A DNA stretch of 64,000 nt, from contig CAPFSK010000002.1 in the NCBI GenBank assembly GCA_948614045.1, positions 18,404 to 82,403 of the forward strand. Direction: 5' to 3'. The stretch's first letter is position 1. Every line of letters starts with the position of its first letter. This DNA comes from an uncultured Candidatus Saccharibacteria bacterium (GTDB lineage: Bacteria; Patescibacteriota; Saccharimonadia; Saccharimonadales; Saccharimonadaceae). The notes beneath the pieces are model-generated. The model made no database searches. It was not told the DNA's origin and was given only the letters and a program-made list of their open reading frames with translations. A program made the translations under genes and the position numbers. Of this stretch, positions 3,171 to 32,628 are shown one piece after another.

Positions 3171-4786
3171 GCGGCTCCTTTTTGGTTATTTAATTGATCG
3201 TTACGCGAAATTGTCAAATCATTTGGCCCGGTCACTGGCTGCACGGGCGCTTGTTGCACCGGCATCACCTGCGGCTGCACGGGCGCTTGTTGCACCGGCA
3301 TCACCTGCGGCTGCACTTGTTGTGCCTGAGGCACTACTTGCGTTTGCGCCTGCGCCGGCATCTGCACTACTGGCTGAGGCTGTTGCGGCACCACCGGCGC
3401 AGTCTGAACTTGCATTGTCTGCCCTGTTGCTTGTACCGCACTCGCAGCCGGCATCACCTGTGGTGCACTTGTCTGCTCCACGCTTTGCACTACCGTCGCC
3501 GTGCCTGCCTCTGCTCCTCGTAGCGGCACGCTCACGCTCGACGTCGTCACCTGCGGCTTCGCTCCGCTCTGCGTCTCGCTAAACGCCTGTACTGTCTGCT
3601 CATTTTGATACGCCAACAAGCGCTTCTGGTATTCGGCATTACTTAGCCTTGGTAGACTCACGAAGAACGTTGACCCATCCCCGAACGCACTCTCGACCCA
3701 CACTCGACCATCCATCGCTTCAACTCGCTGCTTGACTAGATATAACCCTAGACCTGTCCCGCCAATCTGCCGCGTCTGTGAATTGTCTACGCGATAAAAC
3801 TTCTGGAAAATATGCGCCGCATCATCTGGCGAAATCCCGATTCCATTATCAGTCACATTAATCAAGACCTTATCGCCATCGCCCCGCGCATTTACCCAAA
3901 TCTCGCCCCCCTCCGGCGTGTATTTAATTGCATTTTCAATCAGATTGTCCAAAATCTCTCTCAGCATCCCGAGGTCCACCGCTGCATAGACCAACTGCTC
4001 AATCTGTTTACCGTTTACTGGAGCATTCGTTCCGAAACTGTATTTCAGATGTTTTGCTGCCATGTCTTTCTCGCGCGCCCCCACCATTTCGCGCACTGTC
4101 GACACTATTTCGACTGGCACCAAGTGCAGTTTCAGCCTTCCATCATCCAACTTCGTCACATCCAACAAATCTTTGAACAAATGCCCGAGATGCTGACTCG
4201 CCTTGTGCGCAGCCTCTAGATATTGCTTTGCCCGGTCGTCAATCGTCGCCGTCTGCGGATTCAGTGCCAATCCGAGATACCCCTCAATCGAAGCCACCGG
4301 CGTCCGCATTTCATGGCTCGCCGTCGAAATAAACTCATTCTGGTCCTCTTCCTTCTCTAGCTCTTTCGTAATATCGCGAAAAGTAATGATCTTATTCGAT
4401 CGCGGTCCGCCCGTCGGAATCATCGTCAGCGAAATCGCCGCCTTACGTTCACTCTGTGCCGAAATCAAGACATACTCACGCGTATCAAACTGCTGGCCAG
4501 TCTGAATCGCCTGTGTTAACTTGCTGGTCTCCGGATTCACTGGCTGACCATCCGTCGTCTCAAACCTCAGCACAGCTTGATAACTCAGACCGATTACATT
4601 CGTCGGACTGCCATATCCCAACATTGTCGCTGCGGCCGGATTTGCGAATTTAATAATTCCTGCCTCGTCAATCAACATTACTCCATCATTGATTGCATTC
4701 AAAGTCAACGACGCAAGCGCCGAATAATTCGGAATTTCCGATGCCGACAGCGCCACCGGCTTCATTTTCTTCTTGAACAAACTCAT
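3167..4786 (-). CDS. PAS-domain sensor histidine kinase with ~140-aa Q/P/V-rich C-terminal tail
   Basis: H-box SHEMRTPVASIEGY, N-box LIENAIKYTP, and G-boxes DNGIGI and GGTGLGLYLV. Confidence 0.9.
   Translation of the reverse strand: MSLFKKKMKPVALSASEIPNYSALASLTLNAINDGVMLIDEAGIIKFANPAAATMLGYGSPTNVIGLSYQAVLRFETTDGQPVNPETSKLTQAIQTGQQFDTREYVLISAQSERKAAISLTMIPTGGPRSNKIITFRDITKELEKEEDQNEFISTASHEMRTPVASIEGYLGLALNPQTATIDDRAKQYLEAAHKASQHLGHLFKDLLDVTKLDDGRLKLHLVPVEIVSTVREMVGAREKDMAAKHLKYSFGTNAPVNGKQIEQLVYAAVDLGMLREILDNLIENAIKYTPEGGEIWVNARGDGDKVLINVTDNGIGISPDDAAHIFQKFYRVDNSQTRQIGGTGLGLYLVKQRVEAMDGRVWVESAFGDGSTFFVSLPRLSNAEYQKRLLAYQNEQTVQAFSETQSGAKPQVTTSSVSVPLRGAEAGTATVVQSVEQTSAPQVMPAASAVQATGQTMQVQTAPVVPQQPQPVVQMPAQAQTQVVPQAQQVQPQVMPVQQAPVQPQVMPVQQAPVQPVTGPNDLTISRNDQLNNQKGAA
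3237..3308. repeat. Perfect 36-bp tandem duplication (plus a partial third unit) inside the kinase tail
   Basis: GGCTGCACGGGCGCTTGTTGCACCGGCATCACCTGC x2. It encodes the repeated QVMPVQQAPVQP. Confidence 0.9.
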
Positions 4787-10735: not shown

Positions 10736-10782
10736 GTTTTCATAACAGTGCTTGATGATGTGTACTGGGTAGTGTAATGCTA

Positions 10783-11677: not shown

Positions 11678-11697
11678 ATGCCTTTTACTATCCCTCC

Positions 11698-11910
11698 GGC
11701 GCCACCACCATAGTACAGTTACCATTGGCTTTTGTCCGTAGCGGGTGGGCAAAGCTCGATGGCGGCAGCATGCGCGTCGTCGGCCAGTACGGCTACTACT
11801 GGTCTCGTACCTCTATATCTACTACTAACGCCTACGTCCTGTACATCAACCCTACAGGCGTCAACCCGTCAGGCAACGGCAATCGTTTCGTCGGTCTCCC
11901 CTCCGCTGCC
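11698..11910 (+). pseudogene. FISUMP/DUF1566-like C-terminal cassette C1 (no ATG or SD, tail replaced by the inverted flank of C2)
   Basis: Encodes GATTIVQLPLAFVRSG...GYYWSRT...NAYVLY...PSGNGNRFVGLP. Only a TTG start, directly after the terminator. C-run of 4. Confidence 0.6.
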
Positions 11911-11928
11911 GTACTTCCTCTTCCTCCA

Positions 11929-12195
11929 TTAGGCACTACCTGGGTAGAGGCAGCGGAGGGGGAAACCGTCATTTCGCATGTTACCGTTTGATGGATGAAT
12001 GACAGTAGGATCCGTATACAAATACCAGGCAAGAGTAGATGAAACTGCTGTACGCGCCCAACTATAAGCACCGCGTATATTACCAACATTCCCATAGTCT
12101 AAATAGACATACCCGCTACGGACAAAAGTGAGTGGTAAAATGTTGTGATTATAACAACGCACATTTCCACAGTAATAACAGAGGAGATATGGCAT
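11929..12195 (-). CDS. FISUMP/DUF1566-like mini-protein, cassette C2 (88 aa, the only fully intact copy)
   Basis: ATG start. LTFVRSG...YSWARTAVSSTLAWYLY...PSNGNMRNDGFPLRCLYPGSA* with a C-run of 5. Confidence 0.6.
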   Translation of the reverse strand: MPYLLCYYCGNVRCYNHNILPLTFVRSGYVYLDYGNVGNIRGAYSWARTAVSSTLAWYLYTDPTVIHPSNGNMRNDGFPLRCLYPGSA

Positions 12196-12385
12196 AATGT
12201 TGTAAAAAATACATGAAAAATAGTCAGCAAAAATCCTCGAAAATCCTTGCTATTTCTACGCGAGTCAAGTATACTAGTAACAGTTCGAAAGAACATAAGG
12301 CTAACTGCGAGCCAACGATAAGTTGAGAGCTTATATGTTCAAAAAGTCGCCATGCTATGGGCGATTTTTTGGATTCCGGCTAGAG

Positions 12386-12598
12386 TCAGCGGAGGGGGCG
12401 ACCATAGTAACGATTGCCATAGTTTGATGGATAGATAATGGAAAAGCTGAAGTATAGACTGTAGGTATCGTTAGTCGAGTTTGATGTACGCGTCCAGCTA
12501 TAGCCGTTTGCTCCGATGACTCTTGTCTGGCTGACGCCAAGATCTACATATCCACTACGGACAAAAGCCAATGGTAACTGTACTATGGTGGTGGCGCC
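12386..12598 (-). pseudogene. Cassette C3 (no own start; TGC->TGA at the conserved Cys)
   Basis: GATTIVQLPLAFVRSG...GYSWTRT...DTYSLY...GNRYYGRPLR*. The 46-nt 5' block is identical to those of C1 and C7. Confidence 0.6.
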
Positions 12599-12623
12599 GG
12601 TAGTCGTACTTCCTTTTCCTCCA

Positions 12624-12840
12624 TTAGGCACTACCTGGGTAGAGGCAGCGGAGGGGGGAAACCAGCCCAAAGATTATTACTGTCTGAAGGATTAACACTT
12701 GTAGGACGAGTGTAGAGATGATAAGCAGTAGCAGACGATCTAGCCGTACGTGACCAGAAGTCGCCGCTGTTACCGACCACCCGCATAGCACCCTCATAGT
12801 CAGTACTAACATTAACCCATCCGCTACGGACAAAAGCCAA
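12624..12840 (-). pseudogene. Cassette C4 (TTG start only; C-run of 6 shifts the tail out of the GFPLRC frame)
   Basis: AFVRSGW...GDFWSRT...TAYHLY...PSDSNNLWAGFPPPLPLPR*. The alternative frame ends ...PLRCLYPGSA*. Confidence 0.6.
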
Positions 12841-12981: not shown

Positions 12982-13059
12982 AAAACCCGTATACGGGTTT
13001 TACTGTTGAAGAACAGTAAAACCCGTATACGGGTTTTACTGTTGAAGAACAGTAAAACC
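12982..13059 (+). repeat. 36-bp tandem repeat (2.2 copies), each unit made of two perfect hairpins, in a long 5' leader
   Basis: AAAACCCGTATACGGGTTTT + ACTGTTGAAGAACAGT, repeated at 12982-13017 and 13018-13053, plus a partial unit. Confidence 0.9.
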
Positions 13060-13202: not shown

Positions 13203-14192
13203 ATGGAAGCTACATTATCATTTATTCAGGAATTGAGCGAGAAAATTACAGAGTTAATCGGTTTTCATCTCGGTGCAGACCATATCCATTATATCGGGGA
13301 AGACGGCACGGGCTGGCATTATTATATCCAGGCTTTGCAACCGGGCTACCCGGTACTCGCGATGCATTATCGTGGACCGCTGATGCTGGCGTTGCCTTTT
13401 GCAGATTACTGCAAGCTGGAAGCTGGCGAGATCACGGTCGACGCATACATTGCGCAGTCGCACTGGAACTATGGCTATTACTGGGGTGGCGGCGGACTGC
13501 TAAGCGGTGCTTACTGGCAACCATTGGAGGCAGAAACCGGCATTCATGATACTGAGCGTATCAGCCGTTATCTGCAGATCTTGAGTTGTCGTACGTTTCG
13601 TCGTTCCAGCGGGCATATACCGAGTATTGAGAATTGCGCGAAGTGTCAGCTCGATGAGACAGGCTGCCCGTTTTCGCCGCAGAACCAGACTGGTTCATGG
13701 GACAACGAGGTCGCAGAGCCGGACGGTCGGGTGGAATTATTCCAGGCAGTTTGTGAACGCGTGCAGCAGGAGCTCGGCTTTGAGCGCTACGACTTCATGT
13801 CACATAATGAATCTAAGCATGAGCTTTTGCTCTTCCCGGGCATGAAGCCGAACACTGTACGGATTTTCCTTAGCCGGGATTTGCTTAACGATCTGCTTTA
13901 TCATCCGGAGGTGAAACGCGACTGGAAAGAGATGGCGGCGCGCCTTGACATTGCCTTGGCGATGCCGTTCCATCCGGAGCAGCGCACAATGCTTGACCTG
14001 AATGCTCCTGACTTACGCGCGGCCTGCCTTGATTTTTGGGGCGACAATATGTTGCAGAAGGTAGGCTCTGCTGAAGCTGCTGCTATGCAGACTGCACGGG
14101 TCGATCACGGGTTCATTACCCCGCGTGGAATTAAAATCCTGACAACCCTTAATAAGGCTTTCAATAAGGTCATTGATAAAGCTCGTGGCTAA
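13203..14192 (+). CDS. Hypothetical protein (orphan, 329 aa)
   Basis: ORF with SD AGAGGAGG, about 285 nt downstream of promoter copy 2. Confidence 0.7.
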   Translation: MEATLSFIQELSEKITELIGFHLGADHIHYIGEDGTGWHYYIQALQPGYPVLAMHYRGPLMLALPFADYCKLEAGEITVDAYIAQSHWNYGYYWGGGGLLSGAYWQPLEAETGIHDTERISRYLQILSCRTFRRSSGHIPSIENCAKCQLDETGCPFSPQNQTGSWDNEVAEPDGRVELFQAVCERVQQELGFERYDFMSHNESKHELLLFPGMKPNTVRIFLSRDLLNDLLYHPEVKRDWKEMAARLDIALAMPFHPEQRTMLDLNAPDLRAACLDFWGDNMLQKVGSAEAAAMQTARVDHGFITPRGIKILTTLNKAFNKVIDKARG

Positions 14193-14221
14193 TCGCAGGA
14201 TTCGGCAAGTCATTATGGGGA

Positions 14222-14250
14222 CCGCTGGTCATTACGACTGGCGGTTTTTC
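14222..14250 (+). terminator. Intrinsic terminator
   Basis: CCGCTGGTC-atta-GACTGGCGG (two G-U pairs) followed by TTTTT. Confidence 0.6.
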
Positions 14251-14264
14251 ATTGCAAAAAGTCC

Positions 14265-14295
14265 TTGACCTGGAGTCCACTCCAGACTTTATAAT
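14265..14295 (+). promoter_or_regulatory. MerR-type promoter/operator with 19-bp spacer
   Basis: TTGACC-19 nt-TATAAT. The spacer contains the dyad CTGGAGT-cc-ACTCCAG. The ATG lies 6 nt after the -10. Confidence 0.75.
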
Positions 14296-14301
14296 GGAAA
14301 T

Positions 14302-14652
14302 ATGAAGATTAGCGAAGTAGCGAAGCAGACTGGTCTCCCGGAGGATACTCTGCGTTTTTACGAAAAGAATAATCTCATCGGCGAGGTTCCACGCGTGAAC
14401 GGTATTCGCGATTATTCCGAGCAAAACTTGCGACGGATTAGTTTCGTGAAATGTCTGCGTGGGGCAGAAGTGCCGATTGAGGTGATCCGGAAATATGTAG
14501 AGTTAGTAGATGCCGGCGAAGATACCTTACCCGAACGAATCAAATTGCTAGAAGCCCAGCGCGATGCGCTGGATCGGAAACTAACCGAAACTCAAGCGGC
14601 TTATGACAAAATCGTTTATAAAATTAACTTATATCAGAAAGGAGAAAAATAG
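14302..14652 (+). CDS. MerR-family transcriptional regulator
   Basis: MKISEVAKQTGLPEDTLRFYEKNNLI HTH plus a coiled-coil C-terminus. Confidence 0.9.
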   Translation: MKISEVAKQTGLPEDTLRFYEKNNLIGEVPRVNGIRDYSEQNLRRISFVKCLRGAEVPIEVIRKYVELVDAGEDTLPERIKLLEAQRDALDRKLTETQAAYDKIVYKINLYQKGEK

Positions 14653-15497
14653 TGAAGTATGTCAAACTTAATAATGGCGTAGAGATGCCGGCTGTGGGTT
14701 TAGGAGTATTCACTTTTAGCCCCGAAGATGCGGAAAAAGCCGTAGAAAGTGCCCTAAAATCCGGCTATCACTTGATTGATACGGCAAACTCTTATGTCAA
14801 CGAGCGGGCGACTGGTCGCGGTATCAAGAACTCTGGTATCAAGCGCGAAAATGTGTTTATTAGTTCTAAACTCTGGCCGTCCGAATACGAAAACGAGAAC
14901 GCGGTAAACGAAACTTTGGCGCGCCTCGGTATTGAATATATTGATTTACTTTTCTTACATCAGCCATCCGGCAATTATCTCAACGGCTACAAAATGATAG
15001 AACGGGCAGTGAAAGACGGTAAAGTTCGCGCCATTGGTCTATCTAATTTTGAAGGCGAATACTTTGACGATATTTTGAACCACTGCGAAATTAAACCGCA
15101 AGTGATGCAGGTAGAGTGCCATCCATATTATCCGCAAGTGGAACTCCGCGAGAAACAACTATTGCCGAATGATATTAAGCTGATGTCTTGGTTTCCGCTT
15201 GGACACGGCGATAAATCCCTCGTGAACGAACCAGTAATTGTGAAACTCGCCGAAAAATACGGTAAATCACCAGCCCAAATTATCTTACACTGGCATACAC
15301 AGATGGACTTTATTGTGATTCCGGGGTCGCGCAGTCCTGAGCATATTAAAGAAAACATTGATATTTTTGACTTTGAACTAACTGACGCAGAAATGGCAGA
15401 AATTGCTAATATCAACAAGAACGAAAGATTTTACTATCGCGACCCAGAAAACTTAAAAAGTTGGGTAAACCTAAAACCACAGTGGGAGGAAGAATAA
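14652..15497 (+). CDS. Aldo/keto reductase
   Basis: GTG start. KYVKLNNGVEMPAVGLGVF...IDTANSY...LHQP typical AKR motifs. Confidence 0.9.
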   Translation: MKYVKLNNGVEMPAVGLGVFTFSPEDAEKAVESALKSGYHLIDTANSYVNERATGRGIKNSGIKRENVFISSKLWPSEYENENAVNETLARLGIEYIDLLFLHQPSGNYLNGYKMIERAVKDGKVRAIGLSNFEGEYFDDILNHCEIKPQVMQVECHPYYPQVELREKQLLPNDIKLMSWFPLGHGDKSLVNEPVIVKLAEKYGKSPAQIILHWHTQMDFIVIPGSRSPEHIKENIDIFDFELTDAEMAEIANINKNERFYYRDPENLKSWVNLKPQWEEE

Positions 15498-16490
15498 ATG
15501 AGTAATCAATTTGGTCTAGTTTACGCGGGCGCAATTACTGAGAATGAACCCAGCAAGGTCAATATTAAGCCGGTAGAATATGCGGTGAACGATATTAAGG
15601 TATCGGCAAATCTCTATCTGCCACCAAACTTTGACGAAAATAAGAAATATCTCGGCATTACAGTCGCCCATCCGAACGGTGGTTGTAAGGAACAAGTCGC
15701 CGGGCTATATGCGCAGAAATTAGCAGAGTTGGGATATGTGGCGGTTGCGGCCGATGCGCGCTATCAGGGTGCTTCAGAGGGTAAACCGCGCCTGCGCGAT
15801 TATCCAGAGAACCGTATAGAAGATGTCAGTGGAATGGTGGACTATCTTATTTCCTTACCGTATATTGATAATAAACGCATTGGTGCGCTAGGTATTTGTG
15901 GTGGCGGTGGTTATACTCTCGCCTGCGCCCAGACCGACAAGCGCATTAAGGCGGTCGCAACTCTATCTATGTTTAACTCAGGTCGCGTGCGCCGCAATGG
16001 TTTCTTGGATCAAGATGTTACTGGAATTACTAGCCGCTTGGAACGCGCCGCTGAAGCGCATACTTCAGAACTTCAAGGTAAGGTAAAATACGAAGGTTTC
16101 TTGCCGCCGCACGAGAATGATGACGAACTGCGTGCTAAAATGGCGGAACTTCCAGAAAACTCGCTTTATCGCGATGGAATTGAGTATTATGGCATTACGC
16201 ACAAGCACCCTAACGCTACTGGGAGCTATACGACTGAATCGTTTATGAAGTTAATGGCTTTTGATGTAGAAGATCGGATGGATTTACTCACGCAGCCACT
16301 GTTAATGATTGTCGGTAGCGAGGCAGATACTAAATATATGTCTAAGGATGCGTTTGAGAAAGCCGTCAACGCACCAGAAAAAGAATTATTTGAGGTAGCC
16401 GGCGCAAGTCATATCCGCACTTACTATGTCCCGGAATATGTAGAAGCAATCGTAAAGAAGTTAAACAATTTTTATAGTAAATATCTTTAA
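15498..16490 (+). CDS. Alpha/beta-fold hydrolase (dienelactone-hydrolase-like)
   Basis: Nucleophile-elbow-like GICGGGGY. The length and layout fit an alpha/beta hydrolase. Confidence 0.7.
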   Translation: MSNQFGLVYAGAITENEPSKVNIKPVEYAVNDIKVSANLYLPPNFDENKKYLGITVAHPNGGCKEQVAGLYAQKLAELGYVAVAADARYQGASEGKPRLRDYPENRIEDVSGMVDYLISLPYIDNKRIGALGICGGGGYTLACAQTDKRIKAVATLSMFNSGRVRRNGFLDQDVTGITSRLERAAEAHTSELQGKVKYEGFLPPHENDDELRAKMAELPENSLYRDGIEYYGITHKHPNATGSYTTESFMKLMAFDVEDRMDLLTQPLLMIVGSEADTKYMSKDAFEKAVNAPEKELFEVAGASHIRTYYVPEYVEAIVKKLNNFYSKYL

Positions 16491-16500
16491 GGAGGTAAAG

Positions 16501-17139
16501 ATGAGCAAAAAGTTAGTTGGTGGAATTATTGGCGCAGTAGTCGTAGTCGCGATATTCGGACTAAGCGCATTCTTCTTACGCGGCCGTAATTCCGAGAACG
16601 AAAATAATAATGATAACAACGGAGGAAATGCTCAAGTGGAAAACAATACAAGCAAAACTGATGGTAAAATCTTAGTGGCTTACTATTCCGCTAGTGGTAA
16701 TACCGAGAATGTCGCGAAGAAAATTGCAGACAATCTTGGAGCGGATACTTTTGAGATTGTGCCACAGGAAATCTACACTGATGAAGATTTGGACTGGACG
16801 GCGGACGGCTCGCGCGTCAATCGTGAACATGAGGACGAAAGCTTGCGCGATATTGCGCTAGTTAATACCGCTCCGGCGGATTGGGCCTCATACGATACAG
16901 TCTTGATTGGCTATCCGATTTGGTGGGGAATTGCAGCCTGGCCGGTGAATAACTTTGTCAAAGAGAATGACTTTTCTGGCAAGACCGTAATCCCGTTCGC
17001 CACTTCGACATCCTCTGGACTAGGGCAGAGCGGGGAATTATTGGAAGCTATGTCGAATGGCGGTGATTGGCAGACTGGCATGAGGTTTAGCTCGCGCCCA
17101 TCTGACGGCGATATCAAAGATTTTACAGATAGTATTTAA
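16501..17139 (+). CDS. Membrane-anchored flavodoxin-like protein
   Basis: N-terminal TM, N-rich linker, then ILVAYYSASGNTENVAKKIA and a flavodoxin-like core. Confidence 0.75.
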   Translation: MSKKLVGGIIGAVVVVAIFGLSAFFLRGRNSENENNNDNNGGNAQVENNTSKTDGKILVAYYSASGNTENVAKKIADNLGADTFEIVPQEIYTDEDLDWTADGSRVNREHEDESLRDIALVNTAPADWASYDTVLIGYPIWWGIAAWPVNNFVKENDFSGKTVIPFATSTSSGLGQSGELLEAMSNGGDWQTGMRFSSRPSDGDIKDFTDSI

Positions 17140-17164
17140 CACAGAGAATGTAGCTGAACTAGCA

Positions 17165-24254: not shown

Positions 24255-24339
24255 GCCCGTGTGGTGAAATTGGTATACACGTATGCCTTAGGAGCATATG
24301 CCGCAAGGCGTGCTGGTTCAAGTCCAGTCGCGGGCACCA
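24255..24339 (+). tRNA. tRNA-Leu (anticodon UAG), long variable arm, CCA encoded
   Basis: Acceptor GCCCGTG/CGCGGGC, anticodon loop CTTAGGA, variable arm GCCGCAAGGCGT, T-arm GCTGGTTCAAGTCCAGT. TGCTATAAT promoter at 24237-24245. Confidence 0.9.
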
Positions 24340-25898
24340 TCAATGAATTCCTTGCCTTTGAGCAAGGTAGCAAAAGGCTCTTTCCAGAGGAAATGAGGCC
24401 TTTTTTCATCGTCAATTTCGAGGTTCAAGACGCATTTTCGAGTAAGCATGTCTTTTTCGGCTACACCAGCATTTCTTATCTGTTGCGGAAGGTTTTTAAG
24501 CAGGTTCAAGAACTCATCTTTAGAAACTATGGCTTGTTGGTATTTCTCGATATTGCCATCAATCTTCGAAAGTTCTGTCTCGATGTTTGCTAGGTCAGTT
24601 TCCAAAGACGCTAACTTATTCTGGGCGAGCTCACGGGGCTTCGAGCCAACTTGTAAGCTTGGCATTACGTTAAAAGAAATATGGTTTATTTCTGACGTTA
24701 GGTGAGATTTTCTACCTTGTAGACTACGGCGGTCAGTTCTCAACTGGACGACTTTCTCATCCGACCGTTTACCAAACTGCTTGCTATATGCTTTGTATTC
24801 TTTCTCCGTAAACTTTACGCTGTCTAGAGCTCTGTATAGAACGTTAAATATCGCCTCTGCACGTATGCTCTTTTGTGTTCTGGTACACTCCTTGTTGTCG
24901 CATCTATAATATAGATACCTTTCCTTACTGTGCGACCGACTAGCTCCAGGATACATTACATGCCCACAAACACCGCAACGCACCATGCCTCTTAAAGGAT
25001 AAAATGTAGCACGATTCTTCTTACTGGTTTTACCGGTCTTTCCATGAGGATTATCCGCAACAATAGCCTGAACTTTGTTGTATTCTTCCTCCGTCACCAT
25101 TGGCTTGAAATCATCAATTACTTTCCTTAAGTCCACCTCTTGGTCTGCTTGGACTAGCACTCCATAGTAAAATGAATCTTTGAAGATATTTGTCGGAGTA
25201 TTTATACTTGGCTTTATTGCTCGCGGAGTTTTATTCTTCCTATTAACCTTTGTCATCTTTTCCATTCCACTTTGTAGCCAGTAATCCAAAATCTCCTTAT
25301 TGCCCGCACCTTCTAACTTCATCTCCCAACCCTTACGGACTAAATCAAAGTTACTATCGGGTTCATAAAACCCTTGTAAGTTGCGATTATAGCCCCATTT
25401 TGGAGTGCCAGAGGACTTACCTTCTGGCAGTCTATTATCATTAGCACGTAACACACCTTCAGAAATATGCTCGGAGTATTGTTTAGCTAGAGCAAATAGG
25501 ATGTTCAACATAAGCTTACCACTACTATCATTCTCAAATCGACAAAACGGGAACTTCATGTCCTTAATGATTTCCTTGTCATACATGTCCATGATGGTAC
25601 CAGACTCTAGTGAGTTGCGAGAGAGCCTATCAGGATGCCATGCAATAATACCATCATAGATACCGTTTTCGATATCTTGTATCATCTCCATAAATGCTGG
25701 TCTGTTCTTGGGTGTTTTGGCAGACTTTTCTTCACGTATGACCTTAACAATCTTTAGTCCCTCACGCTTTGCTAGAGCCTTACAGTCCTTTATCTGGTCT
25801 TCAATGGAATGCTCTTGACTACCTTTATCTTCTGTAGATTTCCTCGCATACAGGACATAGTTCAGTTTAGATACATCTATCTCCTTTTTGCGTGCCAT
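24318..25898 (-). CDS. Large serine recombinase (integrase)
   Basis: N-terminal resolvase domain YARKSTEDKGS...HPDRLSRN, recombinase domain, zinc ribbon CGVCGH...YYRCDNKEC, and a coiled-coil tail. Confidence 0.9.
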   Translation of the reverse strand: MARKKEIDVSKLNYVLYARKSTEDKGSQEHSIEDQIKDCKALAKREGLKIVKVIREEKSAKTPKNRPAFMEMIQDIENGIYDGIIAWHPDRLSRNSLESGTIMDMYDKEIIKDMKFPFCRFENDSSGKLMLNILFALAKQYSEHISEGVLRANDNRLPEGKSSGTPKWGYNRNLQGFYEPDSNFDLVRKGWEMKLEGAGNKEILDYWLQSGMEKMTKVNRKNKTPRAIKPSINTPTNIFKDSFYYGVLVQADQEVDLRKVIDDFKPMVTEEEYNKVQAIVADNPHGKTGKTSKKNRATFYPLRGMVRCGVCGHVMYPGASRSHSKERYLYYRCDNKECTRTQKSIRAEAIFNVLYRALDSVKFTEKEYKAYSKQFGKRSDEKVVQLRTDRRSLQGRKSHLTSEINHISFNVMPSLQVGSKPRELAQNKLASLETDLANIETELSKIDGNIEKYQQAIVSKDEFLNLLKNLPQQIRNAGVAEKDMLTRKCVLNLEIDDEKRPHFLWKEPFATLLKGKEFIDGARDWT

Positions 25899-25927
25899 AG
25901 ATGTATTATATCATATTACCCCTGTTA

Positions 25928-26149
25928 TTAGAACTTAATCATACCTCCTCTATTATCACTCATAGTAGTTGCTGTATCAAACTTCGCCCATTCTGGATTG
26001 GGGCACGGTGTATTTTGCAGGTGTTTCAGGCAGTGGACTAGAGCAACCAGATTGTCGCCAGCCTCATCCTCTTTGGACCGTAAAGCGAGCACTAGCCGAC
26101 TATCACTATCATCAGGCTTCAAAATCAAACCATTCTGATTAGTCTTCAT
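25928..26149 (-). CDS. Hypothetical small protein (73 aa)
   Basis: ORF in the same orientation as, and tightly spaced with, the integrase operon. Confidence 0.45.
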   Translation of the reverse strand: MKTNQNGLILKPDDSDSRLVLALRSKEDEAGDNLVALVHCLKHLQNTPCPNPEWAKFDTATTMSDNRGGMIKF

Positions 26150-26253
26150 CAGCTAGTGCCTCCGTGTTTATGTTAGTTTTTGTTTTATACTGACATTATC
26201 TCGTAAGACACCAAAAAGTTCTTCACCCGTGAGGGGGATATTTGGGGGATGTT

Positions 26254-26868
26254 TTATTCTATATCGAGTCTATAAGCGGTTGGGTTTGTCCGGACCCTGT
26301 TGACGTGCTTATGGCCATCTCCGTAGTATGGAGCTAGAGCTTCATCAAGTTTGCATTTATGCCTAGATACAGTAGCGACGTTATCGTCACCCCATATCCT
26401 TGCTATCTCCACCATCGTCAGAACATGCTCATCATTCAATAGGAATGCTACTAGGACTTCCCGGAGTTTACCACCAAAGGCTATTTCCTTATCGCGAAAC
26501 AGAATACGTCCACCAACCAGTAGCTCATAATCACCAAGTTTCGTAGGCTGATGTCTAGACTGTGCGGAGCGATTGATAGACTTGAGATGATATAGTTGCC
26601 CTCGCATATCAACAATTAACCCGATATAGTGCCTCAAATAGTCACCACAATTATCTGGAGTTAGTTCACCAAACGTATTGCCAGCAATTAGTCTAGCGTG
26701 TAAATCTAACTGGTCGGTGCCCAGAACTAGCGTATCTAGTTCCTGTTTCCAAGAAGATATGTCATCAACAGTTAGGGGCAGAGTTTGAGCTTTAACCGAC
26801 AGCCTACCTAGACTTTTAGCTATTTCTTCTAAATGCTCCAATTCTTCTGTTGTATCGCCCCGAATCAT
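26254..26868 (-). CDS. Putative DNA-binding regulator with OmpR/PhoB-like winged-helix C-terminus
   Basis: The C-terminus resembles trans_reg_C: LREVLVAFLLNDEHVLTMVEIARIWGDD...VSRHKCKLDEAL...AYRLD. Confidence 0.55.
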   Translation of the reverse strand: MIRGDTTEELEHLEEIAKSLGRLSVKAQTLPLTVDDISSWKQELDTLVLGTDQLDLHARLIAGNTFGELTPDNCGDYLRHYIGLIVDMRGQLYHLKSINRSAQSRHQPTKLGDYELLVGGRILFRDKEIAFGGKLREVLVAFLLNDEHVLTMVEIARIWGDDNVATVSRHKCKLDEALAPYYGDGHKHVNRVRTNPTAYRLDIE

Positions 26869-26925
26869 GGGTATATTATAACAGATGTAGTCGTCGATTA
26901 GTATTGAGGGGTGCCGTATTATATA

Positions 26926-28356
26926 CTACTGCTCATCTAATTCGGCTAGTTGACGCAAAAGTTCCGCCCTGCGTTGCTCCTTATAATCGTCAACAACCGT
27001 TTCAGGTATATCTAGCGTGCTTTGGTGTCGGTTCATAAACCCAGCAACGTCCTGATTGACGATAATATCTTCTCTACTAATCGGTCGAGTGAGATATAGA
27101 CTGTCCAAAGAAACACAACGGGAAACCGCCACATAAGTCTGACCCGAGCTAAATGCTCCTCCCTCTAAATTTACCTCTACTGATTTGTAGGTTTGACCCT
27201 GTGCCTTATGAATGGTTAATGCCCATGCCAAACGTAATGGAAATTGCGTGAAAGTAGCAACAGTCCGAGCTACCAATTTTTTAGTATTGGCATTATACTC
27301 ATAAACTTTCTTCTCCCAAGTAGCACGGTCAATGCGGTATTCGACTTTGTTAATCATAACTTTCACCATATCCTGCGATAGCTCCGATACAACCCCAATA
27401 GTGCCGTTCACCCAGCGTCTACCCCGATTGGTTCCGTATGTAGCCTCATCACCCTCTGTATCGTTCTTCAACATCATAACTTGAGCACCAACTTTTAGGT
27501 GTAGCTCCACTTCGGTTGGAGTACCAAACTTGGAAAAATCACCAGTAATACTTGCTTGATAAGTGTATTCTGGTCGTCCAATTTGATTTAATCTTTCTTG
27601 ATTAATTCTTGAAACTGTTTCGTTGCGAGGACTGAGGACTATGGCTCGATTATGGTCATCGCGTGGGGCAGTGCCAGAACAATGGTTGAGAACATCCAAC
27701 TCGTTGTCAGTAATACGGCCCTCCCGCATGTCGTTTAGAATACTGATAAAACCGGGATCCTTTTGCCGAAAAACACGTTTAAGTTCATAGACTGGCAGTG
27801 GTGCCCTATCAAATACTGGTGCATTAAAGAAAAACACACCACCATACTTATCCGTCAAATATCTATCTACTTGCGGCTCAACGACTGGTGGTAGTTGATA
27901 TAAATCTCCGAACATAAGGACTTGTTTTCCACCAAACGGCAATGTATTGTTGTTGGCAAGCTGCAATTTAAGGTCAATGGCCGACATAACATCCACTCTC
28001 ACCATTGAGACCTCGTCTATGATGAGAACATCAATAGATTTCAAAATCTCCTGACGTTTACCCCATACACCCTTGCGTTTGATTTCTTCAAGGTTTTGAA
28101 CATTAATATCTAGCCCGAAGAATGAATGCATTGTTTGGCCGCCAACATTTAGTGCTGATATCCCAGTTGGGGCAACTTTTACCACGTTCTTATGTGTATT
28201 CTTAACAAAATACTCTAGCAAAAAGGACTTACCGGAACCAGCTCGACCAGTTATATACATGGTTTCATTGGCTCTCTCCATACGATTAAAAATGCGAATT
28301 TTCTCCTCGTTTGGTAGTTCGTTATTGCTCTTCGTCACCGGTTTAAGGAGTGCCAT
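26926..28356 (-). CDS. Pif1/RecD-like SF1 helicase
   Basis: Walker A GRAGSGKS, Walker B LIIDEVSMV, FGDLYQLPPV, and the C-terminal TIHKAQGQTY motif. Confidence 0.85.
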   Translation of the reverse strand: MALLKPVTKSNNELPNEEKIRIFNRMERANETMYITGRAGSGKSFLLEYFVKNTHKNVVKVAPTGISALNVGGQTMHSFFGLDINVQNLEEIKRKGVWGKRQEILKSIDVLIIDEVSMVRVDVMSAIDLKLQLANNNTLPFGGKQVLMFGDLYQLPPVVEPQVDRYLTDKYGGVFFFNAPVFDRAPLPVYELKRVFRQKDPGFISILNDMREGRITDNELDVLNHCSGTAPRDDHNRAIVLSPRNETVSRINQERLNQIGRPEYTYQASITGDFSKFGTPTEVELHLKVGAQVMMLKNDTEGDEATYGTNRGRRWVNGTIGVVSELSQDMVKVMINKVEYRIDRATWEKKVYEYNANTKKLVARTVATFTQFPLRLAWALTIHKAQGQTYKSVEVNLEGGAFSSGQTYVAVSRCVSLDSLYLTRPISREDIIVNQDVAGFMNRHQSTLDIPETVVDDYKEQRRAELLRQLAELDEQ

Positions 28357-28361
28357 CTTAA

Positions 28362-28790
28362 TTACTCCTTATCACTATCATCTAATAGCCCCACCTGATT
28401 AACGGCAGCCTTACTCTTCGTCGTCCGTCTAGGCTTCTTTGGTGTAGCTTTAGATTCATTTTTAAGTTGAGGACGAGCGACTACTTCTGATGCTGATGGG
28501 TTTAATTGAGTAATAGGTTCGGGCTGGGACGACTCCTGTGCTACGATAGGTGTATCATAGTCGTCATCAGCATTAATAGTTCCTGACTCTTGCCGTAATA
28601 CCTCCTTATAGGCAAGATTACTCAACGCATAGGCAGTCTGTCGAGTTTCCTCTAGACTAGTAGTTAATTCCGCCAAGCTAGAGCTTATACCTTTGATTAG
28701 TTCATGGTATGAAGCAATTTTTTGCTCAAGTGTTTGAATACTATTGCTCATTTGTTCCCAACGGCTAGCATCGTTACCGGTCAGTTCCAT
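28362..28790 (-). CDS. Hypothetical coiled-coil protein with basic tail
   Basis: First gene of the leftward operon. Helical N-terminus and K/R-rich C-terminus. Confidence 0.55.
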   Translation of the reverse strand: MELTGNDASRWEQMSNSIQTLEQKIASYHELIKGISSSLAELTTSLEETRQTAYALSNLAYKEVLRQESGTINADDDYDTPIVAQESSQPEPITQLNPSASEVVARPQLKNESKATPKKPRRTTKSKAAVNQVGLLDDSDKE

Positions 28791-28831
28791 AAGACTCCTT
28801 TTACATAAATATTATTGTGGTGACAATTAAA

Positions 28832-28951
28832 AAGGACACCACGAGAGGTGTCTTACTTCCTACATCACACCTAGACACAAAGTGTCCTGGTGTTCTACAT
28901 GGTGTCCTGTAAATGGGCACCTTGTGTATCAGATGTGATGTATTAAGTAAG
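28832..28951. promoter_or_regulatory. Iteron/operator cluster
   Basis: Palindrome AGGACACC-n5-AGGTGTCT (28833-28853). A 21-bp imperfect IR (28851-28871 / 28930-28951) brackets direct repeats GTGTCCTG, GTGTTCTA, GGTGTCCTG and GGGCACCT. Confidence 0.55.
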
Positions 28952-29739
28952 ACATCTATATTATACCATACGAACCCAATTCATCAAACAGAAACCGCCC
29001 TGCGGACGGTTCGCTGGCAGACCTAACGGTCGCCATCGGGGACACTAATTAGCGTACATGATAGATTCACCAGACAAATACTCTAGCTACTATCATCAAA
29101 AGAAAAATAATAATTCATGCGAGCGATACTGTCATTTGATATAATTCACCAATACTATAAAACGAACACCTATATCACTTTTACAGAGGTATATACTTTG
29201 ATGAGTCCTTATTTCTCTATATAGACTATATTGAGTAAGAACCCAATCATTTCCTATAATTCCCCCGCAAAATACCGCCTCAAAACGCCCGTTTTAGGCT
29301 GATTCTACAGTGTAATGGTCTGACTTTAAGACACTCTCATTGTCGAGATGATACTTATACCGTCTTCGATATTATGTTGCCGATTTCTCACTGGTGTCGG
29401 TGCGATTCAGAGCTAAAACAGTATAATGAATGTCTTTGTCTCTCCTTGAGTTCCTACCCACTTCCGATTGGTGGTGAGCTCCAGTAGAGCAGAGAACTCG
29501 GCGGGGAGGGGTTTAGCTAATATCATCAAGATAAAACATCAAAAGACTAAAGGACTACATATAAATCATGCGAATAGTAGTATCTAAACCTCCTCTATTC
29601 CGTAAGGGCAAGCCTACTCCATATTCATCAAGCTAGACCGACAAGGGGGCTCTGGAGGGGGTAGCTAAAGTAAGCAACCAACTATTCTCTTAACAGCTCC
29701 GCTGTCTGTCTATGAGTATTAAATAAAAGGAGCATAACT

Positions 29740-30030
29740 ATGAGCAATGCTGAAGAGTTACGAACTATACTAACAAGAATCATCAAAAACAACAAGCTAT
29801 ATGGATGTAGTTTTACCTATGGAGTAGCTTTGCGTATGGGTATAGTAAACCAACTATTTCCCGACGAATTAGACCAACTGATTACCGATACGATTGAAGA
29901 CATCTATAAGGACACTCTGGACGTGATGGGCGACGCGGGTATGCGTGTCGATACTGTTGCTATAGCCCACGTCATTGATATAGCAGTGCTAGACGAGATA
30001 GCTCGACATCTTATTGACGAGGAAGATTAG
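29740..30030 (+). CDS. Hypothetical acidic small protein (96 aa)
   Basis: ORF with SD AAAGGAG. Confidence 0.55.
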   Translation: MSNAEELRTILTRIIKNNKLYGCSFTYGVALRMGIVNQLFPDELDQLITDTIEDIYKDTLDVMGDAGMRVDTVAIAHVIDIAVLDEIARHLIDEED

Positions 30031-30127
30031 CTACCAGGTAGGAGGAGTCATTGCGACTTCTCCTCTTTTTATGTCACCAATACAAAGCCCTTCGGGCTCT
30101 GCCTACAGCCTCCGCTGGTGAGAATAG

Positions 30128-30907
30128 CTACCTGCTGTTGATTTTGTTCAACTTCTTGGAATTTTCTTCTCTTCGCCGTTGCCGTATTTGTTCGTGCAAC
30201 TTGTCCTCCAAAATCGTATCGATAGCATCTTGCAATACAAGGTATTGCTTTTCACACTCTCCCTCACTCAACTCGTGTATACCGCTACTCAAAAGTTTAT
30301 AGAGAACACTAAATCCAGTGTCTTTCAAATACTCATCGAATACGCCTTTTTCGACAAGTTCTTTTACCCTGTCTGACATATACTGTTTTGGTTCAGTAAT
30401 GTCAGCTTGAGTTTCTGCTTGTTTGACGAGCGACTCAAAGACACGCCGTAAGTAGTTAAAAGCAGCAATGTATAGACCTGAATAATAAGCTTTAGCGGCA
30501 TTAAGTCTATACTCTTTATCGCCTTTGGAGAGTAGCTTAATAGCGTCACTATTTACGCTCACGTCAAATTGAGTGGCATCTGGATATTGACCAATCTTAA
30601 CTAGACGAGAATTGGGCATAGCTTCCAAAATAATCTCAACGCTTTTACCACACGTGCATGCGAATTTTATACGCTTAATGGAATTATCAAATACAATGTT
30701 TTTATTAGATGTCGATAACTTTATAGCTACGTCTTGAGTATCCGTGTAATGAATCGCTATAAAGCCACGTTCTCCGCCGCAGTTCGGGCAAAAGAGGGTG
30801 GTTTGTTGGCCTTTGCTAGATAAGAAATCACCTCTAGTCTTGTCGTCATTGAATTTGTATTCAAACCCAATCGGTTTCGGGATAAAATCTGCAAGTTCTA
30901 TCGTCAT
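30128..30907 (-). CDS. Zinc-ribbon + DUF4145-like protein (possible defence/abortive-infection cargo)
   Basis: CPNCGG...CTCG ribbon. C-terminal helical region LNAAKAYYSGLYIAAFNYLRRVFESLV resembles DUF4145. TGTTATAAT and an SD lie upstream. Confidence 0.6.
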   Translation of the reverse strand: MTIELADFIPKPIGFEYKFNDDKTRGDFLSSKGQQTTLFCPNCGGERGFIAIHYTDTQDVAIKLSTSNKNIVFDNSIKRIKFACTCGKSVEIILEAMPNSRLVKIGQYPDATQFDVSVNSDAIKLLSKGDKEYRLNAAKAYYSGLYIAAFNYLRRVFESLVKQAETQADITEPKQYMSDRVKELVEKGVFDEYLKDTGFSVLYKLLSSGIHELSEGECEKQYLVLQDAIDTILEDKLHEQIRQRRREENSKKLNKINSR

Positions 30908-31122
30908 CAGTTAAGCTCCTTTGTCTAAATTATAACACTTCGAGTAATAGGTTCAAAAGTTTTCTGGTAGTTCTCCTACAACTTGTATTCCTCTTGATGT
31001 CTTAAGATTGCCAATATCTCTTGCGTGACCGATTCGGGCTCCAATAGCTGAATACTATCATCTTGTGCCAGGTATTCTACAAGATAATCGTAATGTTCAA
31101 GCAAGTTCACACTCGGGGCACC

Positions 31123-31502: not shown

Positions 31503-31772
31503 ATGAATTATTATATTACAACTACCGGCGCCACCACCATAGTACAGTTACCATTGGCTTTTGTCCGTAGTGGGTATATCTATCCACCAAGTGGCGCTAT
31601 CCTTAATGTTAGTGCTAATGGCTATGGTTGGTCCAAAACTTCTAAATCATCGACTAGCACATATGATTTAGGCATACATCCGGATAACGCCAATCCGTCC
31701 GATAGCAGTAATCGTTATGATGGTTTCCCCCCTCCGCTGCCGTGCCTGAAGCCAATGGAAGAATGGAGATGA
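31503..31772 (+). CDS. Cassette C7: FISUMP/DUF1566-like mini-protein (ATG start; C-run of 6 gives an alternative tail)
   Basis: MNYYITTTGATTIVQLPLAFVRSG...GYGWSKT...STYDLG...PSDSSNRYDGFPPPLPC.... With 5 Cs it would end GFPLRCRA*. Confidence 0.5.
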   Translation: MNYYITTTGATTIVQLPLAFVRSGYIYPPSGAILNVSANGYGWSKTSKSSTSTYDLGIHPDNANPSDSSNRYDGFPPPLPCLKPMEEWR

Positions 31773-31885
31773 GAAATAGCTACTCTCAGGAATCTTCGCG
31801 ACCAACGGGGAGCGAGCGAAGCGCAGACCCGCCCGTAACGACGGGACGGGTCAAGCGGGTCCTGAAAGTAGCTATTTCTCATATC
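31766..31885. repeat. 120-nt palindromic element: 26-bp arms (2 mismatches) around a GC-rich 68-nt core
   Basis: GAGATGAGAAATAGCTACTCTCAGGA ... TCCTGAAAGTAGCTATTTCTCATATC. The core has its own hairpins (CTTCGC/GCGAAG, CCCGCCCGT/ACGGGACGGG). Confidence 0.8.
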
Positions 31886-31900
31886 TTCCTCTTTCCTCCA

Positions 31901-32141
31901 TTAGGCACTACCTGGGTAGAGGCAGCGGAGGGATCGACCGACGTAGCGACCACCGCCAGCTGATGGATCGACCGACGTAGCGACCACCGCCAGCTGATGG
32001 ATCGACATTATCGGTGTAGATAAATAAGTCATAGGCGTTATTCGGTGAATTCGCCGTACGCGACCACAGCTGAGCATAGCGACCAACATACCACACCGCG
32101 CTAGCATCAAGATATACAATCCCGCTACGGACAAAAGCCAT
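31901..32141 (-). pseudogene. Cassette C5, disrupted by a 34-bp tandem duplication
   Basis: ATG-AFVRSGIVYLD...LWSRTANSPNNAYDLF...DPSAGGGRYVGRS, then a frameshift. The frame after the duplication ends SLRCLYPGSA*. Confidence 0.65.
31931..31998. repeat. Perfect 34-bp tandem duplication (plus 8-bp partial third copy)
   Basis: GGATCGACCGACGTAGCGACCACCGCCAGCTGAT x2. Confidence 0.95.
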
Positions 32142-32150
32142 ATGCTGAAC

Positions 32151-32411
32151 TCAGTTTTCCGAAAGATCGGCACCAAACTGTGGCCAAACCCAGCGGAGGG
32201 GGAAACCCCAGTAGCGATTTGTCGCATTCATATTGAGATCCGTAGGGTTGAAGTTGAGACGATAGGCGTTGGTAGACGAGTTTGCCGTACGCGACCAGTC
32301 GTAGCCGTTGCTACCGACGTTGGCGACACCACCACCGGTAAGATTAGTATGCCCGCTACGGACAAAAGCCAAACATAACCTAGCGCTAGAGCAAAAGAAG
32401 CCAGTCCGCAC
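32151..32411 (-). CDS. Cassette C6: FISUMP/DUF1566-like mini-protein with divergent tail (GTG start)
   Basis: LAFVRSGHTNLTGGGVANVGSNGYDWSRTANSSTNAYRLNFNPTDLNMNATNRYWGFPLRW.... Cys->Trp at the conserved RC. Confidence 0.45.
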   Translation of the reverse strand: MRTGFFCSSARLCLAFVRSGHTNLTGGGVANVGSNGYDWSRTANSSTNAYRLNFNPTDLNMNATNRYWGFPLRWVWPQFGADLSEN

Positions 32412-32628
32412 TTAGCCTAACCATAATCAGACTAATCCCTGCACTCACAATTTTTCCTCTGACTTTGAGAGTCTGGCTTCACGATCTTTCAAAAGGGAAC
32501 TTATTACAACTGGAGCTTGACCTCAGATGTTGTAGTCGGGTCCCATGGAGCTTGCCCTCCACTTCTTCATTTTAGCACACCGTAAAATCATAAAACGTGC
32601 TACAATATATGAGACTCGAAGGAGGAAA

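Follow-up and report, generated by a model that had tools for sequence, protein, structure and literature searches.

Seven repeat units at two loci

The 64,000-nucleotide stretch of Candidatus Saccharibacteria DNA analysed here (the window) carries seven repeat units, C1 to C7, which we delimited by the 11-mer TTTGTCCGTAG and the 10-mer CCCTCCGCTG. The units lie at two loci, together with two further features:

C1: 11696–11910 (11-mer to 10-mer, 11731–11908), plus strand, target-type (VR-type) unit with the extended 46-nt 5′ block
C2: 11911–12130 (11-mer to 10-mer, 12126–11951), minus strand, target-type unit with a full VR-type tail
C3: 12387–12600 (11-mer to 10-mer, 12565–12387), minus strand, target-type unit with the 46-nt 5′ block
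C4: 12601–12836 (11-mer to 10-mer, 12834–12646), minus strand, target-type unit with the core 5′ block only
C5: 31525–31741 (11-mer to 10-mer, 31560–31739), plus strand, target-type unit with the 46-nt 5′ block
Y-shaped hairpin: 31766–31885, unstranded, between the 3′ ends of C5 and C6, with 26-nt arms
C6: 31886–32137 (11-mer to 10-mer, 32135–31923), minus strand, target-type unit with an ATG start and a VR-type tail
C7: 32150–32369 (11-mer to 10-mer, 32366–32191), minus strand, proposed template repeat (TR-type) with 10 Asn codons
C7 leader: 32370–32577, minus strand, structured RNA with the motifs CCATGGG, GAGGTCAAGCTCCA and AAAGATCGTGAA

A sequence-only reading of the window had described perfect blocks shared by three units at either end, and both were recovered: the 46-nt 5′ block at 11696–11741 (plus), 12555–12600 (minus) and 31525–31570 (plus), and the 39-nt 3′ block at 11922–11960, 12617–12655 and 31894–31932, with 0 matches to either in shuffled sequence. 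The shorter motifs that it had assigned to all seven units behave as described, the 11-mer occurring exactly seven times (1.04 occurrences expected at up to one mismatch) and the 10-mer being exact in 7/7 units. Likewise, C2 does begin ACTTTTG, and the codons of the WSRT motif do vary, with TCT/TCA/TCG and ACC/ACG in use. Pairwise identity of the whole units C1–C7 is 52–65%.

The pairs C1/C2 and C5/C6 converge tail to tail, while C4–C3 and C7–C6 are arranged in tandem. All six tails of C1–C6 are target-type or derived from it, and none of these units has any gene body. The end of C1 adjoins the inverted tail of C2, of which 38 nt (11911–11948) lie between inverted copies of the 12-mer CCCTCCGCTGCC. 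C2 forms an intact 88-aa ORF (11929–12195) whose tail reads ..PLRCLYPGSA and a stop, then GGAGGA... The VR-type tail and linker of C4 continue directly into C3, whose end reads PLR-stop; a terminator-like hairpin comes after it, near 12340–12375. The run of Cs before TCCGCTG is 3–6 nucleotides long and shifts the frame in C1 (four Cs, out of frame at the 3′ block), C4 (six Cs) and C5 (six Cs); with five Cs the unit reads ..GFPLRCLYPGSA-stop. C5 has an ATG and a TATAAT upstream (MNYY.. class) and a variant tail. In C6 the frame is broken by a 34-nt tandem duplication (31923–31990), a repeat present in one copy in other genomes, two in the window and three in strain L001, every additional copy shifting the frame.

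The Y-shaped hairpin between C5 and C6 has folding z-scores of -6.5 and -8.1 and no Rfam match, and its arm motif GAKAWAGCTACTYTC also adjoins cassettes in L003, L011, L038, L044, L056 and L058. Rfam searches of both loci returned nothing, or chance matches to miRNA-like hairpins. A 6.8-kb insertion (24255–31102) next to a tRNA gene (24255–24336), which the related strain L001 lacks, reaches to about 400 nt from C5; it encodes a large serine recombinase (24318–25898, minus) and a Pif1-like helicase (26926–28356, minus) and therefore resembles an integrative element. The block at 14052–17150 (MerR, aldo/keto reductase, S15-like hydrolase and a flavodoxin-like gene) occurs in the window, L064, L066 and L073, and is missing in L001/L072, L065 and L070. 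Perfect 36-nt tandem repeats were seen at 12982–13053, between C4 and the next gene (two copies, palindromic AAAACCCGTATACGGGTTTTACTGTTGAAGAACAGT), and at 3237–3308 within a long ORF (GGCTGCACGGGCGCTTGTTGCACCGGCATCACCTGC). A spliceosomal-intron look-alike (CAG/GTAGTG ... TTTTGTCCGTAG/) was discounted, the genome being bacterial and the 'acceptor' part of coding sequence, and an alternative genetic code is unnecessary, since long ORFs tile the window.

Block nucleotides and interior codons are under different constraints

Near-absence of synonymous variation in the boundary blocks, claimed from the seven units alone, was borne out in a sample of 67 unique same-length cassettes from several genomes, gathered by protein pattern and not by DNA. 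Third positions are conserved to 0.94–1.00 in GCT TTT GTC CGT and to 0.97–1.00 in CCC CTC CGC, and conservation is close to 100% across the third positions of GCT TTT GTC CGT AGY GG and CCC CTC CGC TGC. At the conserved interior G/W/S/R/T/Y/L/P/R codons, the corresponding values are 0.3–0.65 for third positions and 0.85–1.0 for first and second positions. This contrast indicates old interiors that are constrained as protein, and blocks in which the nucleotides themselves are constrained. An ordinary full-length relative encodes FFVRSG by other codons (TTC TTT GTC CGC TCC GGT), so protein constraint alone does not fix the nucleotides of the block. When further members from several genomes were aligned, the blocks remained far more conserved than the interiors, and a recent segmental duplication of whole units does not account for their identity, because the interiors are unrelated to each other.

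The interiors are under protein-coding constraint. Among 125 units defined by DNA only, the frame runs through from AFVRSG to PLRC in 114, and 112 are intact; a stop falls in the coding frame of only 4 units, versus 99 and 125 units for the other two frames. Closely related cassette pairs show a pN/pS of 0.25 and 106 transitions versus 12 transversions; recent changes between close cassettes look like ordinary drift under purifying selection rather than ongoing mutagenesis.

The module resembles the C-terminal end of Fib_succ_major domains

In an exhaustive profile search, which returned 6856 relatives, among them proteins as long as 6011 aa and with as many as 13 matches, the cassette profile matched the C-terminal third of domains that score as PF09603 (Fib_succ_major) or PF07603 (Lcl_C). 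By this profile evidence, the module appears to be the last ~60–75 codons of a Fib_succ_major (C-type-lectin-like) domain, from ..AFVRSG to GFPLRC. The link to PF09603 is indirect, running through cassette-profile matches to proteins that themselves score as PF09603: the cassette peptides and the 141-aa long form had no match in Pfam or NCBIfam, the PF09603/TIGR02145 model included, and a PDB sequence profile search with the cassettes gave chance-level matches only. A bridging fragment, P0222/L082, which encodes FFVRSG with different codons, joins the cassettes to the PF09603 proteins. Fib_succ_major/Lcl_C domains are DGR target category 'd' (PMC5758913; PMC4159848), and the variable region of this target class is the C-terminal end (PMC5758913, PMC4159848). 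AlphaFold gave a pLDDT of 46 for the 88-aa form and 42 for the 121-aa form, and the fragments are thus not predicted to fold by themselves.

Word-indexed protein searches returned products of 72–202 aa only, with unrelated N-termini, and among 5.8 billion sequences no protein longer than 202 aa carried the AFVRSG block. A six-frame search with full-length domain proteins found no full Fib_succ_major-type domain in the window or the fetched loci. Together, two word-indexed, one exhaustive profile and the six-frame locus searches, which covered a list of loci capped at 80, on assemblies with breaks, yielded no long block-carrying protein that could mark an expression site, nor a single expressed full-length locus sharing the edges of the units, as a silent-cassette system would have. 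A '140-aa class' considered as the unique expression locus was rejected because each genome has 2–3 such loci, whose 5′ ends are nested.

The units belong to a large family of 5′-truncated copies

A search of related genomes for further copies, which the sequence-only reading had proposed, found at least 59 unique units in one genome and at least 40 in another; templates number at least 5–6 per related genome. The family occurs in Candidatus Saccharibacteria MAGs from mouse gut, and mouse-gut samples that contain the species of the window include ERZ14499235 and ERZ14650961. Most units are solitary; convergent pairs come next, ahead of all other multi-unit arrangements. Towards the 5′ side the units stop at a nested, discrete set of positions (the core alone; GGCGCC, which gives the 46-nt type; MNYY; longer, from GGAACAGCGAAC; one longer still), and all types have the 3′ end in common, so the units are 5′-truncated copies of the 3′ end of a gene. 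In about half of them, unrelated sequence runs up to the block with neither start nor ribosome-binding site. A prophage or tail-fibre origin was discarded, IMG/VR containing no relatives of the cassettes.

Cassette contigs also turned up in assemblies labelled Lachnospiraceae, Roseburia or Oscillospiraceae (L004, L005, L008, L024, L027, L031, L039 and L047) and in the isolate assembly Mediterraneibacter agrestimuris DSM 111629; these reflect either mis-binning or contamination, or else point to the host of the epibiont. In another lineage, P0066, P0070, P0074 and P0083 are 730–980-aa read-throughs of module arrays (FFPASGYR..GFPVRC) joined by invariant linkers VRCVQASAAVFAFTKDTFVFFPASGYR, and cassette arrays are therefore not confined to this Saccharibacteria clade.

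C7 has the features of a template with a structured leader

From its sequence features we propose C7 as a template repeat whose transcript would include a conserved structured leader. C7 is Asn-rich, has a template-type tail (GGTTTGGCCACAGTTTGGTGCCGATCTT after CCGCTG, with the motif GGTGCCGATCTT at 32174–32163) and shares its leader with templates next to reverse transcriptases (RTs), as expected of a DGR template; it is 99% identical in two other species. The leader contains an extended -10-like element, TGCTAAAAT, at 32577–32569, a putative promoter that a simple promoter scan did not call, and carries GAGGTCAAGCTCCA at 32524–32511 and AAAGATCGTGAA at about 32489–32478. Leaders of this type also lie upstream of templates adjoining RT genes in L090, L092 and L093.

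The same division into templates and targets runs through all loci. The template-type tail defines 22 unique units, with a mean of 11.1 Asn versus 4.1 in the others. At least one leader motif lies within 330 nt upstream in 21 of the 22, the remaining one having only 65 nt of upstream sequence, and both motifs accompany only 4 of 117 other units. Conserved helices form in the folded leader RNA, and 10 of 21 consensus pairs show compensatory changes. Templates and targets are identical through CCGCTG and then split into two tail classes; by analogy with IMH/IMH*, we infer that the sequence after CCGCTG, which reads CCTCTACCCAGG.. in a target and G..GGTGCCGATCTT in a template, may set directionality. 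Elsewhere in the window, near-identical promoter-like sequences, TATTGACAAAAAT..TGCTACAATG, at 10781, 12887, 17400 and 21132, and inverted at 2364, resemble the TGnTAnAAT box found upstream of template leaders.

Relatives carry a reverse transcriptase next to such templates

A DGR-clade RT is present in related Saccharibacteria contigs of the repeat family (L083, L085–L095), and the RT homologues occupy a conserved priA-def-fmt-DUF5663-accessory-RT locus. In L083, reached via the 121-aa long form P0203, the cassette gene is separated by ~380 nt from a 414-aa ORF that matches PF00078 (E = 4.7e-8) and has the motifs IGNLTSQ and YVDD. About 215–300 nt downstream of the RT, on the same strand, a TGnTAnAAT box is followed by the leader (CCATGGG, GAGGTCAAGCTCCA, AAAGATCGTGAA) and an Asn-rich template, as exemplified by L090 and L091. 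The RT-linked template of L092–L095 has window-type blocks, AFVRSGYVNLNNGQARNVGENGYGWSRTAYSSTNAYNLNMNPTGVNPSNNNNRYNGFPLRW, and the tail GAGGCGTGGCCGGTTTCGGTGCCGATCTT after CCGCTG. No DGR-clade RT (I/LGxxxSQ, YxDD) was found in the window or in loci L001–L082, and neither the accessory gene nor a priA-def-fmt neighbourhood in the window or ~60 other cassette loci.

L086 contains a complete secreted target of 605 aa, whose last codons are strain-variable at NN-C sites, and it is in the related L085–L088 family that the strict adenine-type pattern appears, as NN-C variable codons. The unit in template position in these loci (with leader, after the RT; ~6495–6700 in L085, L086 and L088, 4799–5005 in L087) is not Asn-rich, and its differences between strains fall on the NN-C sites that also vary in the variable region of the 605-aa target. 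In L085 this unit and that region are identical, and the template seems to have been overwritten. The cassette neighbouring the 121-aa gene in L083 was rejected as its template, mismatches falling at all bases. Small ORFs with a CdiA_C domain (PF18451) occur on the opposite strand just downstream of RT-leader-template units (L089 6429–6863, L091 8200–8601, L092 6481–6840, L093 4871–5245 and L095 3310–4263).

Differences are enriched at template adenines

Variable sites in the 67 cassettes are mostly N/Y/D/S/G on AAY consensus codons, an adenine-centred variability that points to retroelement mutagenesis, acting through what appear from their sequences to be several template lineages, as the historical source of diversity. 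Measured against the nearest template, the median mismatch is 0.41 at template adenines versus 0.27 at other bases; in the best template-target pairs, it is 0.27–0.47 at A and 0.10–0.15 at non-A positions, and the highest share of mismatches at A is 0.60. Among 22 templates × 117 targets, no adenine-only pair was found, the lowest non-A mismatch being 10%. Differences are enriched at template adenines but are not confined to them as they would be in a canonical DGR. In the window, C1–C6 differ from C7 comparably at non-A sites (0.32–0.42) and A sites (0.35–0.51).

Whole interiors are replaced between strains at the blocks

Ten contigs that encode an identical 221-aa neighbour protein at the first locus (C1–C4) fall into three haplotypes. 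Haplotype A comprises the window, L064, L066, L069 and L073, and is found on contig CATLDX010000001.1 of GCA_949916095.1; in haplotype B the interiors of C3 and C4 are replaced; in haplotype C replacement extends to all four interiors of the locus, and the 38-nt tail lying between C1 and C2 is flipped. Flanks and linkers are 97–100% identical between haplotypes, interiors 40–60%, and identity drops and returns at the blocks. Unrelated interiors between identical flanks, with breakpoints at the blocks, mean that the blocks act as replacement anchors: they are demonstrably the junctions of whole-interior replacement. Exchange of segments with junctions in conserved sequence, as in silent-cassette systems, is also seen within a genome. 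L048 and L053, from the same genome, are identical over 260 nt in otherwise unrelated surroundings, and this stretch ends on both sides exactly at the outer block edges; it contains no adenine changes, which points to conversion at the DNA level. Mosaic cassettes were found in L013, L043, L018 and C6 of the window.

The sequence-only reading had attributed the invariant DNA to a constraint on nucleotides, exerted either through recombination or gene-conversion anchors or through a motif read as DNA or RNA, and both versions gain support; it had drawn no link to retroelements. The former is supported by the strain breakpoints at blocks, the 260-nt duplicate cut at block edges and the mosaics, and the latter by the fact that the blocks are the boundaries common to template-type and target-type DGR repeats. 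DGR homing employs its boundary sequence as nucleic acid.

Interpretation

We consider it probable that the seven units represent a DGR repeat family of mouse-gut Candidatus Saccharibacteria, in which C7 is a template, C1–C6 are targets, and interiors are overwritten between anchored edges. So understood, the system is a greatly expanded form of the known DGR system. C1–C6 would have kept the stop codon and 3′ tail of the target gene and lost its body, and the invariant blocks would be the boundary sequences common to templates and targets. Because every unit has the same edges, an interior could be overwritten as a whole, through homing of template-derived cDNA or through homologous gene conversion between units, and the same process would also keep the edges homogenised. 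An RT encoded elsewhere in this genome would still be acting on the units. What this explanation leaves unexplained are the intact frames and purifying selection in fragments without start signals, and this counts against it. Also against it are the lack of an RT, accessory gene or priA-def-fmt neighbourhood in the window and ~60 other cassette loci, the failure to find any adenine-only pair among the sampled templates and targets, the drift-like recent changes, the L048/L053 duplicate free of adenine differences, and the absence among 5.8 billion sequences of a block-carrying protein above 202 aa.

A further version, which we regard as unlikely, holds that one RT elsewhere serves a dispersed library of separately transcribed templates (at least 5–6, with conserved leaders) together with dozens of cassettes. 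Since all have the same edges, any template could overwrite any cassette, adding switching at the level of the family to adenine mutagenesis. The truncated cassettes would then have a function, encoding small variable proteins or serving as a reservoir for recombination, and the intact frames and purifying selection would therefore be explained. If true, combinatorial retroelement diversification would take up several percent of an ultra-small epibiont genome.

The retroelement may instead have gone from this lineage, leaving an archive of silent cassettes that evolves in concert by RecA-type conversion at the blocks, a history that is possible if somewhat improbable. The perfect 46- and 39-nt blocks suffice in length for homologous pairing, and much of the recent record looks like conversion: breakpoints between strains at blocks, an exact block-bounded duplicate without adenine changes, mosaics, and recent substitutions that are transition-biased and under purifying selection, with no RT in the window or ~60 other cassette loci. 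Yet the expression site on which such an archive would act was not found, there being no long block-carrying protein and no full domain in the window, and an RT does adjoin such a template in close relatives that have these blocks. Moreover, the templates are Asn-rich, with compensatory changes in the leader and 99% conservation across species, which argues that the retroelement RNA is still under selection.

That the units are ordinary small paralogous genes of 70–140 aa, whose ends reflect protein constraint and codon preference, seems very unlikely. The 112 of 125 units intact in frame and the pN/pS of 0.25 would fit, as would the ATG starts and TATAAT-like boxes of some units (C2, C5, C6) and the 72–150-aa proteins that gene callers give in many assemblies; however, third positions are invariant in the blocks only, a full-length relative encodes the same residues by other codons, and conservation extends beyond the stop into the untranslated tail and linker, across differing frames. 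Nor do such genes sit easily with the missing start or ribosome-binding site in about half of the units, the unconfident AlphaFold models (pLDDT 46 for the 88-aa and 42 for the 121-aa form) or the absence of any Pfam or NCBIfam match. Least credible, and in our view highly improbable, is a shufflon-like device in which a recombinase would act on the inverted copies of the 5′ block or of the CCCTCCGCTGCC 12-mer to switch which C-terminal segment is expressed. It draws on the inverted 5′ blocks flanking the convergent pairs C1/C2 and C5/C6, on the flipping of the 38-nt tail between inverted 12-mers in haplotype C, and on convergent pairs being the commonest multi-unit arrangement, but most units elsewhere are solitary, and strain differences consist of replacement by unrelated sequence, not inversion. 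Neither locus is entered by a constant 5′ gene segment or adjoined by a recombinase; the sole recombinase in the window belongs to the strain-specific integrative element, which L001 lacks while having cassettes.

Saccharibacteria are ultra-small epibionts that need to recognise host bacteria, and lectin-like surface modules are obvious tools for this. If dozens of modules and several templates are under selection in a ~1-Mb genome, targeted diversification would be a major investment, and the organisation would, if true, be unlike the textbook one of one template, one RT and one to few targets. Testable parts include the conserved leader RNA family, the two tail classes that may direct homing, and loci at which interiors are exchanged naturally. 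If the retroelement is dead, the family would provide a clean natural case of concerted evolution of recombination anchors around diverged, constrained cores.

Comparison with known systems

Shufflons and Mycoplasma vsa-type systems likewise have alternative C-terminal segments, convergent pairs and inverted-repeat bounds; the cassettes described here differ from them in having no adjacent recombinase and no constant region, and in inversion being limited to one 38-nt tail. Closer in arrangement are Neisseria pilE/pilS, Borrelia vlsE and Anaplasma msp2, with promoterless partial copies that have conserved edges and variable cores, are dispersed as well as in tandem, give mosaic products and stay coding while silent. 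Unlike in these systems, the expression site was not found here, and the units are part of a retroelement family that includes templates and a leader RNA.

The nearest counterparts are the CLec2-target DGRs of the DUF1566/Fib_succ_major class, such as that of Legionella LdtA (category 'd' of Wu et al. 2018, PMC5758913). As in these, the variable module is the C-terminal end of what profile matches suggest is a Fib_succ_major/Lcl_C-type domain (PMC5758913), the template is rich in Asn (AAY) and has its 5′ and 3′ boundaries in common with targets, the RT of the relatives' loci has IGNLTSQ and YVDD with an accessory gene upstream, and short target proteins are common. By contrast, the present family has at least 5–6 templates per genome with leaders of their own, mostly far from the RT, a structured RNA upstream of the template, and dozens of target-type units consisting of nothing but the 3′ end of a gene, with no adenine-only pair seen and no RT in the window. 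The DGR of Treponema denticola, whose remote targets number up to seven and which also has truncated or leftover ones (PMC4891356), offers a second parallel: several dispersed targets for one retroelement, truncated targets of 58–136 aa, and targets that persist in isolates without RT and template (PMC4891356). The Saccharibacteria family departs from it in scale, with at least 40–59 units per roughly 1-Mb genome versus 2–7, in its multiple distinct template lineages, in the swapping of whole interiors between strains, and in non-adenine interior differences as large as those between unrelated paralogues.
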